Below are positions 9,160 through 26,980 of a stretch of 35,830 nucleotides of DNA, in pieces. Numbering within the stretch: the first letter of the stretch is position 1; each line of letters opens with the position of its first letter. This DNA is from Deferrisomatales bacterium (GTDB taxonomy: Bacteria > Desulfobacterota > Deferrisomatia > Deferrisomatales > JACRMM01). The notes beneath the pieces are model-generated. The model did not search any database. It saw only the letters and a program-made list of their open reading frames with translations, and was not told where the DNA came from. Location: contig JAWSUI010000038.1 in NCBI GenBank assembly GCA_033551855.1, positions 1 to 35,830 of the forward strand, given 5' to 3'. Position numbers and translations under genes: made by a program.

Positions 9160-10238
9160 AGATCGTCGACCGCCACCTCTCCGGCGAGTTCTTCCGGCTG
9201 TTCCTCGCGGCCGGGCTGACCTTCACGGGGCTGTTCCTGCTCGTGGAGTTCTTCGAGAAGCTCCGCATGTTCCTCAAGTACGAGGCGGGCGCCACCGACG
9301 CCCTGCTCTTCCTGTTGGCCCGGGTCCCGTGGATGGTGTCCCAGGTGCTGCCCATGGCCACCCTCCTGGGCACCCTCCTGTCCGTGATGCTCCTGGCGGG
9401 TCAGGGCGAGATCACGGCCCTGCGCTGCGCCGGGGTCTCGCTCACCCGCCTGCTCCGTCCCTATCTGGTGTGCGGGCTGGTCGCCGCAGGCGCAAACGCC
9501 CTCATCCAGGAGGTGGGGGCACCCCAGGGCTTCGCCTTCGCGCGGGAGGTCCAGGAGGTGCGCATCAAGAAGCGCCCCCCCTCCTCCCTGCTGAAGAGCG
9601 AGGACCTGTGGGTGCGCTCGGGGACACGGATCATCCACGTGGGCTTGGTGGCCCCGGAGGACGGCCGTCTCGTGGGGGTGAGCGTGGCGGAGGTGCAGGG
9701 CAACCGGGTGTTGCGCCGCATCGATGCCGTGGAGGCCCATTGGGGCGCCGAGGGGTGGGTGCTCCGGGAGGCCGTGGTACGGGAGTTCCAACCGGACGGG
9801 ACCTTCTCCCGGGATGCGCTGGAATCGCTGCCGTACCCTCTCGAAGGCCGCCCGGAGGATTTCCTGATCGCCGACGTGGGCCCGGACGAGGCCAGCTGGG
9901 CACAGCTGCGGCGGCGCATCGACCGGTACCGGGCGCAGGGGATCGAGACCCGGGCGCTGGAGGTCGCGCTCTGGGCGAAGACCAGCCTTCCCCTGGTCAA
10001 CGTGGTCATGCCCCTGCTGGGCTTTCCCTTCGCCGTCCGTGCCGGCCGCAGAGGGGGCGCGGCCGCGGCCGTGGTGGCCTCCCTCTGCCTCGGTTTCGCC
10101 TACTGGCTCACGCTGGCCGTCGGCCTCGGCCTGGGGAGCGCGGGGTTCCTGCCCCCCCCACTGGCTGCCTGGGGGGGGAACCTCCTGTTCACGGTCTTGG
10201 GCGCCGCGCTCCTGTACCGCGCCGAGAGGGCCGTGTGA
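9156..10238 (+). CDS. lptG: LPS export ABC transporter permease LptG
   Basis: MKIVDRHL, GEITALRCAGVS, LPPPLAAW. ATGA overlap with lptF. Confidence 0.88.
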   Translation: MKIVDRHLSGEFFRLFLAAGLTFTGLFLLVEFFEKLRMFLKYEAGATDALLFLLARVPWMVSQVLPMATLLGTLLSVMLLAGQGEITALRCAGVSLTRLLRPYLVCGLVAAGANALIQEVGAPQGFAFAREVQEVRIKKRPPSSLLKSEDLWVRSGTRIIHVGLVAPEDGRLVGVSVAEVQGNRVLRRIDAVEAHWGAEGWVLREAVVREFQPDGTFSRDALESLPYPLEGRPEDFLIADVGPDEASWAQLRRRIDRYRAQGIETRALEVALWAKTSLPLVNVVMPLLGFPFAVRAGRRGGAAAAVVASLCLGFAYWLTLAVGLGLGSAGFLPPPLAAWGGNLLFTVLGAALLYRAERAV

Positions 10239-10266
10239 TCCCCACCGGAAGCGACCGGCCGGGCTC

Positions 10267-10920
10267 CTATCCTGAGGACCGGGCCTCCGGTGCACCCTGG
10301 GCCTTCCCCGCAAGGAGCCGGGCGGCCTGTTCCAGGTCCGCCGGCTGGTTCACGTTGAGGAAAGATCGGAGCTCCGGGTCGTGGCGCCGCAACTCGGGCT
10401 CCCGCACCTCCAAGGTGCGCACCTTCCCGTACACATCCAGGATCCGGAGGTTGCCCCGTGCGATCTCCTCCTCGAGGAAGGGGAGAACCGAAGGCCGATA
10501 CACGGCGCACAAAGGCTCGTAGCCCTCGGCCACCCGGGGCACCACCACGTCCCACCCCGGGCTGGCCTGCCACAGGTGGCGAAGGAGCGCGGGTTCCAGG
10601 AGCGGCATGTCGCAGGCGACGCACAGCACCGCTTCCTCTCCCGCCTGTTTCGCACCGGCCACAGCCGTCGCCACCCCCCCCAAGGCGCCGGCCCCCGGGT
10701 AGAGATCAGGCCAGGTGGGGACCGCCAGCCGGTCCAGGCGCGGGGCGCCGCCTACCACTACGATACGTGTGGAGAAGAGGGCCACCCGGGACCAGACCCG
10801 CTCGATGAGGGGGACCCCGCCCAGGGGGAGCGCGACCTTGTCGGCCCCCATCCGCCGGCTCTTTCCGCCTGCGAGGATGGCGGTCAGGGGAGAGCCGAGG
10901 AGCGGACGGGCCCCGCCCAT
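10267..10920 (-). CDS. mobA: Molybdenum cofactor guanylyltransferase
   Basis: ILAGGKSRRMGADK, GALGGV, VACDMP, EPLCAVY, FLNVNQPADL. Confidence 0.93.
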   Translation of the reverse strand: MGGARPLLGSPLTAILAGGKSRRMGADKVALPLGGVPLIERVWSRVALFSTRIVVVGGAPRLDRLAVPTWPDLYPGAGALGGVATAVAGAKQAGEEAVLCVACDMPLLEPALLRHLWQASPGWDVVVPRVAEGYEPLCAVYRPSVLPFLEEEIARGNLRILDVYGKVRTLEVREPELRRHDPELRSFLNVNQPADLEQAARLLAGKAQGAPEARSSG

Positions 10921-10926
10921 GACGGG

Positions 10927-11190
10927 TCAGCCTTCGGCGACGGGTTGCAGGCCGACACCCAGGACCTCGACCGCGAAATTGCGCACGCGGGCCGCCCCCA
11001 CCATCATCGCCAACGCCAGGACCTGCCGAATCTCGGCGTCGGAAGCCCCTTCCTGCTTCGCTCCCGCGAAGTGGCGCCGGCTTCAGTGGGCGCAGCCCCC
11101 GGCCGCGGCCGCGGCTAGGGCGCAGAGCTCCCGGGTCTTGGGGTCCAGGGCATCCTCGTACTCGAACTGGAGAAACTTCTCCCGCGTCAT
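10927..11190 (-). CDS. CMD/AhpD-like selenoprotein, 87 aa, CxxU motif (TGA 11083-11085 = Sec)
   Basis: GGAGG RBS before ATG 11190. Read-through gives MTREKFLQFEYEDALDPKTRELCALAAAAAGGCAH-U-SRRHFAGAKQEGASDAEIRQVLALAMMVGAARVRNFAVEVLGVGLQPVAEG*. The CMD-family pattern (LDPKTRELxALAxA..CxxC..H..A..GASxxEI) continues across the TGA. SECIS-like hairpin present and selA adjacent. Confidence 0.9.
11042..11085 (-). promoter_or_regulatory. Bacterial SECIS element
   Basis: mRNA reads UGA-AGCCGGCGCCA-CUUCGC-GGGA-GCGAAG-CAGGAAGG-GGCUUC. The 6-bp upper stem starts 11 nt after the UGA, the apical loop begins with G, and GAAGCC/GGCUUC forms a lower stem. Confidence 0.75.
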
Positions 11191-11301
11191 GTGCCGTCCT
11201 CCGGCCCCCGTGGAGCTCCGAGGGGTCCGCTGCTCGCCTGTCGCCGTTTCCCCTGCCGGTCTCCGGGGCCCCATCTGCCCGCAGCCGGCCTTCCCCCTTT
11301 T

Positions 11302-12711
11302 TCAGGCACCCGAGTCCCGATCGAAGGCCTCGCCGAGGGCAGCCGCCACCACCCGGTCCTCCCCGGGCGCCAGGGTCCGGGGGTCGAACAAAAGGGCGTC
11401 CTCCTGGATCCGCGCGATGACCGGGGGCCGGTGGCCGCGCAGCGCCCCCTCGAGCCGAGAGACCCCCTTCCCCCCCCGGGCAACCCGCACCAGCCAGGTA
11501 GGGAGGGCCTGGAGGGGCAGGGAACCTCCACCGACCTCGGAGGTACCCTCCACGACGCCGACCTGCGCCCGACCGCCGAGGGCCTCGCATATGGACGCCG
11601 CAAGCGTCTCGGCCCTGGCGCGCAATTCCCGGGGGTCGATCGCCAGCTGGGCGAGGGCGGGAACCCTCCTCAGGGCCTCCTGGGGGTCGCGGTACAGGGC
11701 GAGGGTCGCCTCCAGGGCCGCGAGGGTCACCTTGTCGGGCCGCAACGCCCGCATCAGCGGGTGGCGGGCACAGGCCTCGAGAGCCTCTTGGCGCCCCACC
11801 AGCAGGCCCGCCTGGGGGCCACCCAGGAGCTTGTCGCCGGAGAAGGTCACGACCTCGACCCCGGCCGCCACAACCTCGGGGACCGTGGGCTCGTGCTCCA
11901 AACCCAGGAGCCCCAGGTCGACCAGGGACCCGCTGCCCAGGTCCTCCACGACCGGGAGGCCGTGGCGGCGCCCGAGGGCCACCAGTTCCTCGGTGGAGAC
12001 CGCCGAGGTGAATCCCAGCACGCGATAGTTGGAGGTGTGGACCCGCAGCAGCAGCGCGGTCTCCGGCCCGATGGCCCGCTCGTAGTCACGCAGGTGCGTG
12101 CGGTTCGTGGTGCCCACCTCCCTCAGGACGCACCCGCCCTGAACGAGCACCTCGGGGATCCGGAACGAGCCCCCGATCTCCACCAGCTCCCCCCGGCTGA
12201 CCACCACTTCCCTCCCCCGGGCCAGGGCGGACAGGGCGAGGAGAACCGCCGCCGCGTTGTTGTTGACGGCGAGCGCGGCCTCGGCTCCCGTGAGATCCCG
12301 GAGCAGGCCCGCCACCAGGTCGTGGCGGTGCCCCCGGCGGCCCTCGGCCAGATCGTACTCCAGGTTGCAGTAGCCGGCTGCCCGGCCCATGGCCTCCCGG
12401 GCCTCCGCCGCCAGGGGAGCCCGGCCCAGGTTGGTGTGCAGGACCACCCCCGTCGCGTTGACCACCGGCACGAGCCGGGGGGCCAGGCGCTCCCTGGCCA
12501 GCTCGAGGCTCTCCCGGGCCACCGACTCGGGGTCGAGGGGCACCGGCTCCCCCGCGAGGACCCCGCGCCGGCGCCGGTCCAGGACCTCACGCACCGACGC
12601 GGCGAGGTACTCCCGGGGGACGGCCCCTCCCCGGCCGGCCTCCCGGAGCGCCGGCTCCTGGAGGACCCGCTCCACGGCCGGAATGTCGCGCAGGCGCTCC
12701 CTCCCGCTCAC
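11302..12711 (-). CDS. selA: L-seryl-tRNA(Sec) selenium transferase
   Basis: VVNATGVVLHTNLGRAPL, VNNNAAA, SRGELVEIGGSFRIP, EVGTTNRTH, FSGDKLLGGPQAG (PLP Lys). Confidence 0.97.
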   Translation of the reverse strand: MSGRERLRDIPAVERVLQEPALREAGRGGAVPREYLAASVREVLDRRRRGVLAGEPVPLDPESVARESLELARERLAPRLVPVVNATGVVLHTNLGRAPLAAEAREAMGRAAGYCNLEYDLAEGRRGHRHDLVAGLLRDLTGAEAALAVNNNAAAVLLALSALARGREVVVSRGELVEIGGSFRIPEVLVQGGCVLREVGTTNRTHLRDYERAIGPETALLLRVHTSNYRVLGFTSAVSTEELVALGRRHGLPVVEDLGSGSLVDLGLLGLEHEPTVPEVVAAGVEVVTFSGDKLLGGPQAGLLVGRQEALEACARHPLMRALRPDKVTLAALEATLALYRDPQEALRRVPALAQLAIDPRELRARAETLAASICEALGGRAQVGVVEGTSEVGGGSLPLQALPTWLVRVARGGKGVSRLEGALRGHRPPVIARIQEDALLFDPRTLAPGEDRVVAAALGEAFDRDSGA

Positions 12712-12718
12712 GAGCGCC

Positions 12719-13309
12719 TCACCGACGGCCCCCCACCCGGTTCTCGGTTCCCGCCAGGATCCGCTCGACGTTGGGCTGGTGCTTCCAGAGGAGGAGGCCG
12801 CCCACGGCCAGCGCCAGGGTCACCACCGCCAGGGGCTCCTGGAAAAAGGCGCACAGCAGAGGGAGGGCGGCAGCGGCGCTCATGCTCCCCAGGCTCACCA
12901 TGCGAGACCCCCAGACGACCGCCGCGAAGAGCACCGCCGCCCAGAAGAGCGCGCCGGGGGCCAGGGCCAGGAAGACGCCGAGCCCCGTGGCCACCCCCTT
13001 CCCCCCTTTGAATCCCAGGTACACGGGGAAGAGGTGTCCGAGGAACGCAGCCAACCCGACTGCCGCCACGGCCCATGGGGACGCAAAGACCCCGTAGGCC
13101 CAGGCGACGGGGAGAAACCCCTTGAGGGCATCCCCCGCCAGTGTGGCGGCCCCCGCGCCTCGGCCGAGGGTACGCCCTACGTTCGTCGCCCCGATGTTTC
13201 CGGACCCGGAGCGTCGGGGATCGTTCGCGCCCAGGAGGCGGGCGACGACGAGGCCGGTGGGCACGGAACCCAACAGATAGGCGAACGCAAGGAACAAAAG
13301 CCATTTCAT
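12719..13309 (-). CDS. plsY: Glycerol-3-phosphate acyltransferase
   Basis: AYLLGSVP, GSGNIGATNVGR, GHLFPVYLGFKGGKGVAT, KHQPNVERILAGTE. Confidence 0.95.
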   Translation of the reverse strand: MKWLLFLAFAYLLGSVPTGLVVARLLGANDPRRSGSGNIGATNVGRTLGRGAGAATLAGDALKGFLPVAWAYGVFASPWAVAAVGLAAFLGHLFPVYLGFKGGKGVATGLGVFLALAPGALFWAAVLFAAVVWGSRMVSLGSMSAAAALPLLCAFFQEPLAVVTLALAVGGLLLWKHQPNVERILAGTENRVGGRR

Positions 13310-13347
13310 GGGACACCCCTCGGCGCCGCCCCAGTGAAAACGCCGCC

Positions 13348-13376
13348 AAACTAGCACAGGGGGGTGAGGCGGACAA
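13348..13376 (-). promoter_or_regulatory. Candidate sigma70 promoter for plsY-selA-selenoprotein-mobA
   Basis: Minus strand TTGTCC-N17-TAGTTT with an extended TG. Confidence 0.45.
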
Positions 13377-13696
13377 GCGACGCCCCCGGAGTCCGCCGGC
13401 ACATCGTGGAGCGGCCTCAGGGCGCCCTTCTGCCCTGCCGCTGGGTCCGCGGTCTCTCGGGAGGGCACGCCCCGGTGGAGCCGGTGCCCCAAGCCCAGGC
13501 CCTACCCGCTCGCCGTCCTCGCCACTCTTCGGCGTTGCCGCCCGCAGCGACGCTCCATGGCTCCCGACCCCCGCCCCGAAGGGTGGCGGTGGCCTTCGGG
13601 GCCTGGAAGGCTGCCACTCGCAGGCAAGCGGGGAGACATTGACAGGCGAGCGTCCGGCGGTGAGACTCCTGGGCCGAAGGGGAGGGGAGGGTCGGC

Positions 13697-14392
13697 GTGA
13701 AGAAGGGCTCACGGTCCACAGCGCCCTTGGGGACCGGTGCGGCGGCACTCGTTCTGGCTTGGCTCCTCGCCTGCGCGCCGGCGGAGGGGCTCGAGCTCAC
13801 GGTGCAGGGGGCCAATCGCGCTTTCGAGGGGTTGGAACTCCAGGGGGAGCCCGCGGAGCGGGGGCCCTTCACGGTGCGCCTGTGGGCCCGGGATGCACGG
13901 CTGAGGCTCCTCTCCCACCGGTTGACCCTGCACCCCCTGGAGGACGGGTCACACCGGGCACATCTCGCGATCCGGGGCGCGGGGAGTGCAACCCTGTGGG
14001 CCTCGGTGAGTATCCTGGGCTGGAACACCCAGCAGTCGGGGGCGGCGACCGCGCCGGAGCAAGGCAAGGAGCTGACCGGCCGAATCCTGCTGACCCGGGA
14101 GGCGGACCGCTACCGGGTGACGCCCCTGGAGTTGCCGCGGGACGTGACCGTTCGGGTGGATACGGTCCTGGCGGAGCGGGTGGCGGGGTGGTGCGACGGG
14201 CTGCCGCTCCTGTCCGCCCTGGGGGCCGACTGCGGGGCCCTGCGGCGCGCGGTCACGACCGCAACGGTGCCCCTGCCCCCCCCGGGAGCGACGTACGACA
14301 TCCCTAGGGGGGACTTGTCCCCCGAGGAGCAACGGGCCCTCGACGACTACCTGGAGGCGGCGCAGCGCAGCGGCCCCGACCTCGACCGGTGA
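13697..14392 (+). CDS. Hypothetical exported protein
   Basis: GGAGG RBS, signal-peptide-like N-terminus (KK..LVLAWLLACAPAEG), upstream TTGACA-N17-GAGACT (13639-13667). No family recognised. Confidence 0.7.
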   Translation: MKKGSRSTAPLGTGAAALVLAWLLACAPAEGLELTVQGANRAFEGLELQGEPAERGPFTVRLWARDARLRLLSHRLTLHPLEDGSHRAHLAIRGAGSATLWASVSILGWNTQQSGAATAPEQGKELTGRILLTREADRYRVTPLELPRDVTVRVDTVLAERVAGWCDGLPLLSALGADCGALRRAVTTATVPLPPPGATYDIPRGDLSPEEQRALDDYLEAAQRSGPDLDR

Positions 14393-24824: not shown

Positions 24825-25307
24825 TCAGCCTCTCAGGTCCCGCATGACGGCCGTCTCATCGCACTCGGGAAACTTCACGCAGTGGACGCAGTCCTGCCAG
24901 ACCTTGTGGGGAAGCGTGGACTTCTCCACCTCGTGGAAGCTCAGGGTCTGGAAGAAGTGGGGCCGGTAGGTCAGGGCGAAGACCCGGGCGAGACCGAGCT
25001 CCTGCGCCTCCTGGAGGCACCGCTCGACGAGAACCCGCCCGATGCCCCGACGCTGGCGGTCCCGGCGCACCGCCAGGGACCGGACCTCGGCGAGGTCGAT
25101 CCAACAGATGCGCAGGGCCGAGAGGCCCACGAGCTCGCCCCCCTCTCGAGCCACCACGAAATCCCGGATGCTCTCGTAGAGGTCGAGCCGCGAGCGCGCC
25201 AGGAGGTCACCGCTGCGGGCAAAGTCGTCGAGGATGCCCTTCATGGCTTCCACGTCCTGCAGGCGGGCCCGCTCCACGGTTGGAACGGCAGGGGCGGCAA
25301 GCGTCAC
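24825..25307 (-). CDS. GNAT N-acetyltransferase (short ArgA/N-acetylglutamate synthase-like)
   Basis: LLARSRLDLYESIRDF, LAEVRSLAV, RGIGRVLV, FALTY, LPHKVWQDCVHCVKFPECDE. Confidence 0.88.
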   Translation of the reverse strand: MTLAAPAVPTVERARLQDVEAMKGILDDFARSGDLLARSRLDLYESIRDFVVAREGGELVGLSALRICWIDLAEVRSLAVRRDRQRRGIGRVLVERCLQEAQELGLARVFALTYRPHFFQTLSFHEVEKSTLPHKVWQDCVHCVKFPECDETAVMRDLRG

Positions 25308-26980
25308 GGCGCACTCCTCTGGAGCAGTTCGCGGGCATGTTCCCGCGTGGTTTCGGTCACGCGCCGGCCGCCGAGCATCCGGGCCAGCTCCTCGACCCGC
25401 TCCTGGGGGTCCAGGGGCCTCACCCGGGTCACGGTCCGCCCTTCCTCGGCTACCTTCTCCACCCGGAGGTGTCGCCCCGCACGGCCGGCGATCTGCGGGA
25501 GGTGCGTGATGCATAGAACCTGGCAGGCGGGTGCGAGGGCAGCGAGCCGCTCCCCAACGGCAGCCGCCACCGCGCCGCCAATGCCGGCGTCCACCTCGTC
25601 GAACACCAGGGTCTCCACGCCGGCGTCCCGCAGTGCGTTCTTGAGGGCCAGAAGCACCCGGGACAGCTCTCCCCCCGAAGCGATGCGCGCCAGGGGAAGG
25701 GGGGGCTCCCCGGGGTTCGGTGCCAGCAGGAAGCGCACCTGGTCGGCCCCGCCGGCCCCGGGCTCCCCGGCCCGCACCTCCACCGAGAAGGCGGCGGGGC
25801 CCAAAGCCAACGCCTCGAGCTCCGCCCCCACCCTCCGGCCGAGCTCCTTCCCGGCGCGCCCGCGGGCTTCCCGCAGGATGCGCCCGGCCTCGGCCAGGGC
25901 AGCCCCGGTCCGGTCCCTGGCTGCCCCGGCCCTCTCCAGGGCGAACTCGGTGTTCTCCGCCTCCCAGAGCTCCTCCTCCAGGGCCCGGAGGCGTTCGGCC
26001 AGGGCCTCGGCCGGAACCCCATGCTTGCGCTCCAGCCGGCGCAGGGCGTCGAGGCGCTCCTCCACCTCCTCCAGGCGCCCGGGGTCCGCCTCCAGCGCCG
26101 CCCGCCGGTCCCGCAGGCCCAGGGCGGCTTCCTCCAAGAGGGCCTTGGCTTCGGCCAGGAGCTCCAGGAGGGGTCCCGCCGCGGGATCGCGGCGTCCGGC
26201 GTCCTCCACGGCCCGGGCGGCCCGGGCCAAACGATCCAGTGAGGCCTCCGCCCCGGAGTACAGCTCGGCCTCGGCGTCTCCGTACGCCTCCAGGAGCCTT
26301 CCCGCGTGCACCAGGAGATCTCGCTCCTGCCGCAGGCGTTCCCCTTCCCCCGGCTCCGCGCGGACGGCTCGGAGCTCCTCGACCTCATGCCGGAGGGTTT
26401 CCGCCCTCTCGCGGGCCCGGGCCTCCAACCCCTCGAGCCGGCCCACCTCGGCCTCCGCGGCCCGCCACGCGTGGTAGGCATCCCCGTAGGCCTCCCGCGC
26501 CGCCCGCCCCGGCTCGTCCAGGGAGGCATCCAGGAGGGCCCGGTGGGTCTCCTCCCGCAGGAGGCCCTGGTGCTGGTGCTGGCTCGAGACCTCGACCAGG
26601 CTCCGGCCGAGGCGGGCGAGAACGGCCAGGGGTGCGAGCGCCCCGTTGACGTGGGCCCTGCTGCGGCCGTCGGACCCCACCGTGCGGGCCACCAACAGGG
26701 GCTCGCCCTCCTCCCAAGGTATGCCGGCTTCCCCGAGGACGGCCGCGGCCTCCGCCCGGGCCGCGCCCCGGGGCGAGAAGAGGCCCTCGACCCGGGCTGC
26801 CTCGGCGCCCACGCGCACCCCGTCGCGGCTCGCCCGCTCCCCCAGCAGCAGGCCCAAGGCCTGGAGGAGGATGGACTTCCCCGCCCCGGTCTCTCCAGTG
26901 AGGGCGGTGAACCCCTCCCCGAGCTCGAGCTCCACCTCGTCCACCAGGGCGAAATCGCGGATGCGCAGGAGCTCGATCAC
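25304..26980 (-). CDS. recN: DNA repair protein RecN
   Basis: LTGETGAGKS, IASGGELSR, FDEVDAGIGG, CITHLPQIA, EELARMLGG. Confidence 0.96.
   Translation of the reverse strand: MIELLRIRDFALVDEVELELGEGFTALTGETGAGKSILLQALGLLLGERASRDGVRVGAEAARVEGLFSPRGAARAEAAAVLGEAGIPWEEGEPLLVARTVGSDGRSRAHVNGALAPLAVLARLGRSLVEVSSQHQHQGLLREETHRALLDASLDEPGRAAREAYGDAYHAWRAAEAEVGRLEGLEARARERAETLRHEVEELRAVRAEPGEGERLRQERDLLVHAGRLLEAYGDAEAELYSGAEASLDRLARAARAVEDAGRRDPAAGPLLELLAEAKALLEEAALGLRDRRAALEADPGRLEEVEERLDALRRLERKHGVPAEALAERLRALEEELWEAENTEFALERAGAARDRTGAALAEAGRILREARGRAGKELGRRVGAELEALALGPAAFSVEVRAGEPGAGGADQVRFLLAPNPGEPPLPLARIASGGELSRVLLALKNALRDAGVETLVFDEVDAGIGGAVAAAVGERLAALAPACQVLCITHLPQIAGRAGRHLRVEKVAEEGRTVTRVRPLDPQERVEELARMLGGRRVTETTREHARELLQRSAP

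Follow-up and report, generated by a model that had tools for sequence, protein, structure and literature searches.

Selenoproteins that carry a CxxU motif within a CMD domain were first listed in PMC1088965, and related entries appear as 'AhpD-like 2', a CMD-like CxxU selenoprotein (PMC2398784), and as a 'distant AhpD homolog' with CxxU in Geobacter (PMC1794560). A 2026 review (PMC13188914) equates the 'distant AhpD homolog' with model NF041047, the GSU3128 family, and also lists CMD-like PF02627 CxxU proteins. For AhpD itself, PMC3141380 describes a relay made up of Glu118, Cys130, His132, Cys133 and His137 together with a water, and AhpD proteins are stated in PMC8945050 either to reduce peroxide directly or to transfer electrons from lipoyl carriers to peroxiredoxins.

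Here we compare with these proteins a gene from a Deferrisomatales bacterium (assembly GCA_033551855.1; genome GC 69.6%), located in a stretch of 35,830 nucleotides of contig JAWSUI010000038.1 that was analysed as a whole and is referred to as the window. A first-pass annotation had proposed that an AhpD-like CxxU protein, of a family already reported, is encoded there across an in-frame UGA. Such a family is indeed catalogued, as entries in PMC1088965, PMC1794560 and PMC13188914 attest.

The interrupted frame and its probable decoding

The interval 10927–11190 had been assigned correctly, and the strand, which the first-pass annotation did not give, is minus; the plus-strand reading yielded nothing sensible. 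Read from 11190 to 10927, the frame comprises 87 residues: a first part of 35 ending in GGCAH, an in-frame TGA at codon 36, and 51 sense codons followed by a terminal TGA (10929-10927). Translation thus reproduces the earlier description, including the mobA ATG (at 10920) 6 nt beyond the stop. A plain ORF list gives a 63-aa frame that begins at an ATG at 11274 and terminates at the codon-36 TGA. This start was rejected and the ATG at 11190 preferred, because GGAGGA stands 6 nt before the latter and because a start codon is found there or one codon earlier in 13/13 orthologues. Feature positions are collected in Table 1.

Table 1. Positions of the features discussed, in window numbering except for the last row, which refers to contigs of the host genome (G000).
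Feature	Position	Strand	Basis
CMD/AhpD-core gene, motif C33-x-H35-U36	10927..11190	-	ATG at 11190; PF02627, TIGR00778 and NF041047 scores; model
In-frame TGA, codon 36, likely Sec	11083..11085	-	TGA in 13/13 orthologues; Cys in homologues
Predicted bacterial SECIS upper stem-loop	11056..11071	-	Fold; pairs kept; fits the model as given in PMC13188914
Shine-Dalgarno-like GGAGGA, 6 nt 5' of the ATG	11197..11202	-	Sequence; orthologue starts preceded by purine-rich leaders
selA, selenocysteine synthase, upstream neighbour at 111 nt	11302..12711	-	PF03841 491 bits; TIGR00474 573.6 bits (cut-off 267.9)
MobA-like NTP transferase gene, downstream neighbour at 6 nt	10267..10920	-	PF12804 119.7 bits
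Further in-frame-TGA genes of the host genome	C50:3310-4233, C3:38101-38541, C61:7230-7574, C126:1172-1348, C5:62003-63274, C3 near 3108, C9 near 85966		

The search for orthologues covered 61 genomes, 13 of which hold one at an identity of at least 51%, namely the genome itself and 12 of 20 relatives from the same order (five further close matches duplicate five of the 13 and were counted once). The TGA lies at codon 36 in 13/13 orthologues (51–77% identity), which are kin from one order and not independent tests. Conservation of the downstream codons, as proposed in the first-pass annotation, is borne out by 48–55 sense codons after the TGA in every orthologue. Uncorrected pN/pS over 78 pairs was 0.31 for codons 47–77 versus 0.30 for codons 14–35, so that constraint at the protein level is the same after the UGA as before it. 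Searching 1.84 billion representatives with a profile gave 697 matches, and column counts were taken from the 150 listed. Among the matches listed, Cys occupies the UGA column in 130 of 150 homologues, in agreement with the proposed placement of the TGA at the second Cys of a CxxC motif, and Cys is likewise opposite the UGA in the four PDB alignments inspected; the gaps in this column (7/150 among the matches listed) all belong to fragments of 31–54 aa that end before it or start after it.

Downstream of the TGA, a predicted hairpin is formed by a 6-bp stem (11071-11066 paired with 11061-11056) and a GGGA loop (11065-11062). The bacterial SECIS model, as quoted in PMC13188914, specifies a loop of 3–9 nt with G in its first two positions, a stem of 4–16 bp, a distance of 16–37 nt from the UGA and an energy of at most -7.5 kcal/mol. 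The hairpin agrees with all four of these constraints: its GGGA loop lies at a distance of 17 nt from the UGA, its six base pairs begin 11 nt after it, and its energy is -9.0 kcal/mol (22-nt stretch). All six stem pairs are intact in 12/13 orthologues and the five inner pairs in 13/13; the stem is also kept in 10 of the 11 GSU3128 members described below and is absent from 3/3 Cys-codon homologues checked. Across codons 14–77, 39 alignment columns are four-fold degenerate, and the only invariant ones are Ala42 and Ala44, both GCG and both within the hairpin, a pattern to be read against the use of GCG for 85 of 266 Ala codons in five genes of the window. A loose hairpin rule is satisfied by 1634 of the genome's 72,098 TGA triplets, and folding z-scores of the hairpin region against shuffles are modest (-0.59 to -2.76). 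No covariation is seen inside the clade, as the stem does not vary there; the sole U–A to C–G swap in the stem lies between clades and also alters two amino acids.

The genome encodes all four sel components. In addition to selA in the window, selB lies on contig C1, a tRNA-Sec (selC; 70.9 bits, anticodon UCA) on C4, and selD, bearing an in-frame TGA of its own, on C50; the first-pass annotation had asked for selB, selC and selD to be confirmed. Among the relatives with an orthologue, selA is found in 12/12 and selB in 11/12, the exception being a 70%-complete genome. In one relative selA looks frameshifted (L091:7064-8444, G007:C18), and in another the selB match contains a TGA (G002:C347:1834-2982); either could stem from misassembly of an incomplete genome.

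An alternative account takes the TGA as a true stop, leaving a pseudogene or a short peptide, or has it read as Trp or Cys, with no selenocysteine in either case. Such a stop accords with the public collections (NCBI, nr), in which a look-up blind to U-bearing records found the gene as a 35-aa stub and no read-through form; this stub is also the truncation by standard annotation that had been predicted. Annotation elsewhere in the clade has likewise separated the two halves: the orthologue of G012 is represented by a 50-residue post-UGA piece annotated as a hypothetical protein, and a word-indexed protein search gave a single match, one 50-aa fragment. A true stop is, however, at odds with the fact that in 13/13 orthologues the same TGA precedes a downstream frame that is intact and subject to purifying selection, with the frozen synonymous sites of the hairpin, and with the complete sel machinery. 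Translation as Trp finds no more favour, as TGA is the stop codon of 7 of the 8 genes checked in the window and TGG is the Trp codon, and a UGA=Trp code was therefore rejected. We consider this account extremely improbable, and the conserved TGA, the Cys column, the constrained SECIS-type hairpin and the sel genes together indicate that the UGA of codon 36 is likely decoded as selenocysteine, as first proposed. Three possible obstacles had been named beforehand, i.e. homologues ending at or lacking Cys/Sec at this position, poorly conserved downstream codons, and a genome without selB or selC; each was checked, and none overturned the selenoprotein reading.

Placement among CMD and AhpD-like proteins

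The read-through product matches PF02627 (CMD) with 61 bits over residues 9–74 (cut-off 23), so that the continuation does complete the CMD/AhpD pattern that had been recognised by eye, and it matches TIGR00778 (AhpD core) with 36.7 bits over a cut-off of 27.8, compared to 22.2 for the 35-residue stub. On a loose definition of a CMD-like CxxU selenoprotein (PF02627, a UGA at the second Cys, a SECIS, and selA/selB/selC/selD), the gene falls inside the group. It resembles the PF02627 CxxU selenoproteins in scoring above that cut-off, in its CxxU motif and in its downstream SECIS-type hairpin, the published members being compared by description.

The best NCBIfam match is NF041047, the GSU3128 family, with residues 2–78 aligned to model positions 3–80 of 84. 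As its score of 72.2 bits is below the curated cut-off of 110, the protein was not filed in that family, and NF041047 exceeded its cut-off in 0 of the 61 genomes searched. When the search was extended to 401 genomes of the phylum, 20 of them yielded a match at E 1e-11; the matches include 11 further TGA-bearing genes, from other families within the phylum, with NF041047 scores of 137–169. Like these GSU3128 members, the protein is a stand-alone CMD protein (83–94 aa; here 87) with CxxU in the same place and an invariant relay Glu and His, and it shares with them an N-terminal F/Y-E-x-x-L-D motif, a C-terminal R-x-[RK]-N-F motif, 40–51% identity and the same hairpin stem (10/11). It differs from them in having C-x-H-U in place of C-P-T/D-U, a third Cys at 23 rather than 27, and a position in the gene string plsY-selA-mobA, whereas 0/11 members have those genes within 1.5 kb. 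In a midpoint-rooted tree of 50 rows and about 80 columns, the 13 orthologues and the GSU3128 members fell on one side of a branch with 100/99 support after five long rows (P0010, P0020, P0030, P0062 and P0091) were dropped; with these included the support was 57/88, four of the five falling on the same side. Judged from these sequence comparisons, the gene probably diverged from GSU3128 as a sister lineage. P0004, a cluster of 17 metagenomic proteins, is a Cys form close to GSU3128 (96.5 bits) that retains CxxC and has lost the relay Glu and His.

Other candidate families were rejected by score: full-length AhpD (TIGR00777; 17.8 bits versus a cut-off of 191.95), AhpD-like selenoprotein form 1 (COG2128, TIGR01926; 18.5 versus 81.8) and the 4-carboxymuconolactone decarboxylase PcaC (TIGR02425; 15.8 versus 155.7). 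PcaC is described in PMC3141380 as having no CxxC motif, in contrast to the CxxU of the present protein. The best PDB matches, with E-values between 4e-8 and 5e-4 by sequence and a TM-score of at most 0.71 by fold, are the single-domain CxxC CMD proteins TM1620 (1VKE, 1P8C), RclX (7Y4R), the Rhodospirillum AhpD core (2OUW) and lpg0406 (5DIK); unlike the window protein, these are Cys-using proteins of 112–145 aa with an N-terminal extension.

The genome contains further likely selenoprotein genes. A second CxxU CMD domain, fused to a methyltransferase, is encoded at L107:3848-4834 (minus strand; G000:C46 about 24847-25833); this gene passes the MduS double-selenoprotein model NF045649 (503.7 versus 380); its first TGA is followed by a similar hairpin, and a second one comes after a conserved C-terminal P-G-A/S-T. 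In-frame TGA codons also occur in selD, in three AhpC/TSA-domain genes, in one molybdopterin oxidoreductase gene, and in two near-identical V-U-P-V-C genes (Table 1), the last two of which look as if they encode proteins of the PrdB/GrdB type.

Active-site residues and proposed chemistry

An AlphaFold model with Cys in place of Sec (pLDDT 90.5) has helices at residues 17–31, 34–46, 51–61 and 66–77, which suggests a four-helix CMD fold. A fold search with this model gave no match at E 0.001, and the top match was TM1620 (TM-score 0.71, rmsd 1.9, E 0.005). In AhpD the second cysteine position of the CxxC motif is the attacking one, and here it is the position of the UGA. The residue pattern is E21-x11-C33-x-H35-U36-x3-H40, in which E21, C33 and H40 are invariant in 13/13 orthologues; His35 is replaced by Thr in 2/13 and is Thr or Asp in 11/11 GSU3128 members. 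In the numbering of PMC3141380, which describes AhpD of M. tuberculosis and PA0269, E21, C33, H35, U36 and H40 are spaced as E118, C130, H132, C133 and H137 of AhpD; the window protein differs in being half the length, in having Sec in place of the second Cys, and in having no ahpC among its annotated neighbours.

This AhpD relay spacing, the CMD fold and the known chemistry of AhpD lead us to infer a Cys33/Sec36 redox pair that would reduce peroxide or a partner disulfide. From established selenocysteine biology, SelB would bind the hairpin and bring Sec-tRNA(Sec) to codon 36; with selenium absent, the ribosome would halt at this codon and free a 35-residue stub without half the active site. 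By analogy with AhpD, a Glu21–His40 relay would keep Sec36 as the selenolate, which would attack either peroxide or a disulfide in a partner protein, for instance a peroxiredoxin. Resolution of Sec36 to a selenenyl-sulfide would then fall to Cys33, followed by re-reduction by a lipoyl- or flavin-linked donor, and the protein may form oligomers as solved single-domain relatives do. The partner itself is a guess, because the annotated neighbours include no recognised peroxiredoxin or reductase gene; AhpC/TSA-domain matches number 11 in the genome, none of them beside the gene, and three carry an in-frame TGA. Taken jointly, and by analogy with AhpD, selenocysteine insertion at UGA-36 through the hairpin and an AhpD-type reductase or peroxidase function through the Cys33/Sec36 pair constitute a reading that we regard as probable.

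A third cysteine raises the question of a different function for the same selenoprotein. Cys23 (codon 23, window 11122-11124, minus strand), in helix 1, is present in 12/13 orthologues and in 5 of 144 aligned representatives, and the sole orthologue that lacks it has a Cys at 64; the GSU3128 members have a third helix-1 Cys at position 27 in 11/11, found in 4 of the 144. A clade-specific cysteine of this kind, rare in other CMD proteins, would suit a metal- or metalloid-binding or redox-sensing module composed of Cys23, Cys33 and Sec36 in place of a catalytic reductase, and the fusion of related CxxU domains to methyltransferases (NF041537, NF045649) is in keeping with such a role. The Glu–His relay is nevertheless invariant in 24/24 proteins (13 orthologues and 11 GSU3128 members), as expected for catalysis, and no metal-resistance gene occurs among the annotated neighbours. 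A binding or sensing role therefore appears rather unlikely to us, and a catalytic Cys33/Sec36 pair is preferred.

The selA–mobA setting and its implications

The gene directly downstream is mobA in 10/13 genomes; in the window this neighbour has MobA models as its best NCBIfam matches, every one below its cut-off. Upstream, selA precedes the gene directly in 4/13 genomes, and in a further 3 it does so with lemA and TPM-domain genes in between (within ~2 kb in 7/13); G012 probably has the same order across a contig break. Seven stretches from relatives without the gene at that place (G009, G010, G013, G014, G015, G017 and G020; L099-L105) were inspected, chosen since selA and mobA had already been seen close together, and in 7/7 selA and mobA are adjacent, either directly or across lemA-TPM-TPM. 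As an observation in its own right, plsY-selA-(lemA-TPM-TPM)-mobA is a gene string conserved across the order. In the region 10100-13800 neither a sigma-70 promoter nor a terminator was found, which is compatible with co-transcription and does not prove it; an Rfam scan of the window returned no family, and ARAGORN no tRNA.

These arrangements bear on the possibility that the selenoprotein is real and dedicated to its neighbours, either by keeping the dithiolene of the Mo/W cofactor or a selenium donor reduced for MobA/SelA, or through a UGA that gates mobA translation on selenium. The frequency with which mobA directly follows, its retention beside the gene in G004 and G008, where selA has relocated, and the proximity of selA in seven genomes all point in this direction, as does the overlap of the mobA start with the stop in G012 and, by eye, in G004. 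In the distant orthologues G013 and G015, moreover, the gene lies tail to tail with an ABC transporter (TOBE and PBP domains), of tungstate/molybdate type on our own reading of the Pfam domains. However, selA and mobA adjoin in all seven stretches lacking the gene there, the spacing between the stop and the mobA start varies between -4 and 60 nt (the mobA frame being found by motif in 7 of the 10 loci having mobA), selA or mobA lies within 1.5 kb of 0/11 GSU3128 members, and in G005 the gene kept TPM and rplU as neighbours but not mobA. Given the variable gaps, a conserved coupling of translation to mobA is thus not supported, nor is a specific tie to selA, given the selA–mobA adjacency without the gene and the GSU3128 members without selA nearby. 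We judge dedication to the neighbours improbable.

Because selA and mobA adjoin in relatives that lack the gene there, the selA–mobA setting looks inherited. Most simply, it represents an inherited string, plsY-selA-(lemA-TPM-TPM)-gene-mobA-rplU, broken at differing links in each lineage, and selA and mobA likely reflect gene order rather than partnership. The first-pass annotation had placed the gene right after selA. This is true of the position here (111 nt), but carries little functional weight, since direct precedence by selA is limited to 4/13 orthologues and the two neighbours adjoin in relatives without the gene between them. There remains a highly improbable scenario in which a sister subfamily of GSU3128, with its own Cys23, was recruited to a selA–mobA operon as a selenium gate or as the long-missing reductant of the cofactor dithiolene. 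If the selenium-gate reading were true, the UGA would tie MobA output, and hence the maturation of Mo/W-bisPGD selenoenzymes (e.g. formate dehydrogenase), to the supply of Sec-tRNA. A literature search found no description of a selA–mobA operon, the nearest item concerning a different MobA-related gene beside selD.

Further searches yielded no biochemical study of this AhpD-like CxxU family, none under the name GSU3128, and nothing related by title on selenocysteine in Deferrisoma; BSepDB (PMC13326102) or the supplements of the cited papers may already hold the gene or its clade. CxxU CMD/AhpD selenoproteins have been listed since 2005–2006, and no concept is changed by this gene. What is corrected is the annotation, in that the searched collections hold the clade only as fragments of 31–55 residues from either side of the UGA. 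As the curated GSU3128 model misses the gene, NF041047 could be widened. The 13 selenoproteins are close to a minimal AhpD core and have an unusually clean SECIS, which would make them useful for probing Sec at the second position of the CxxC motif.
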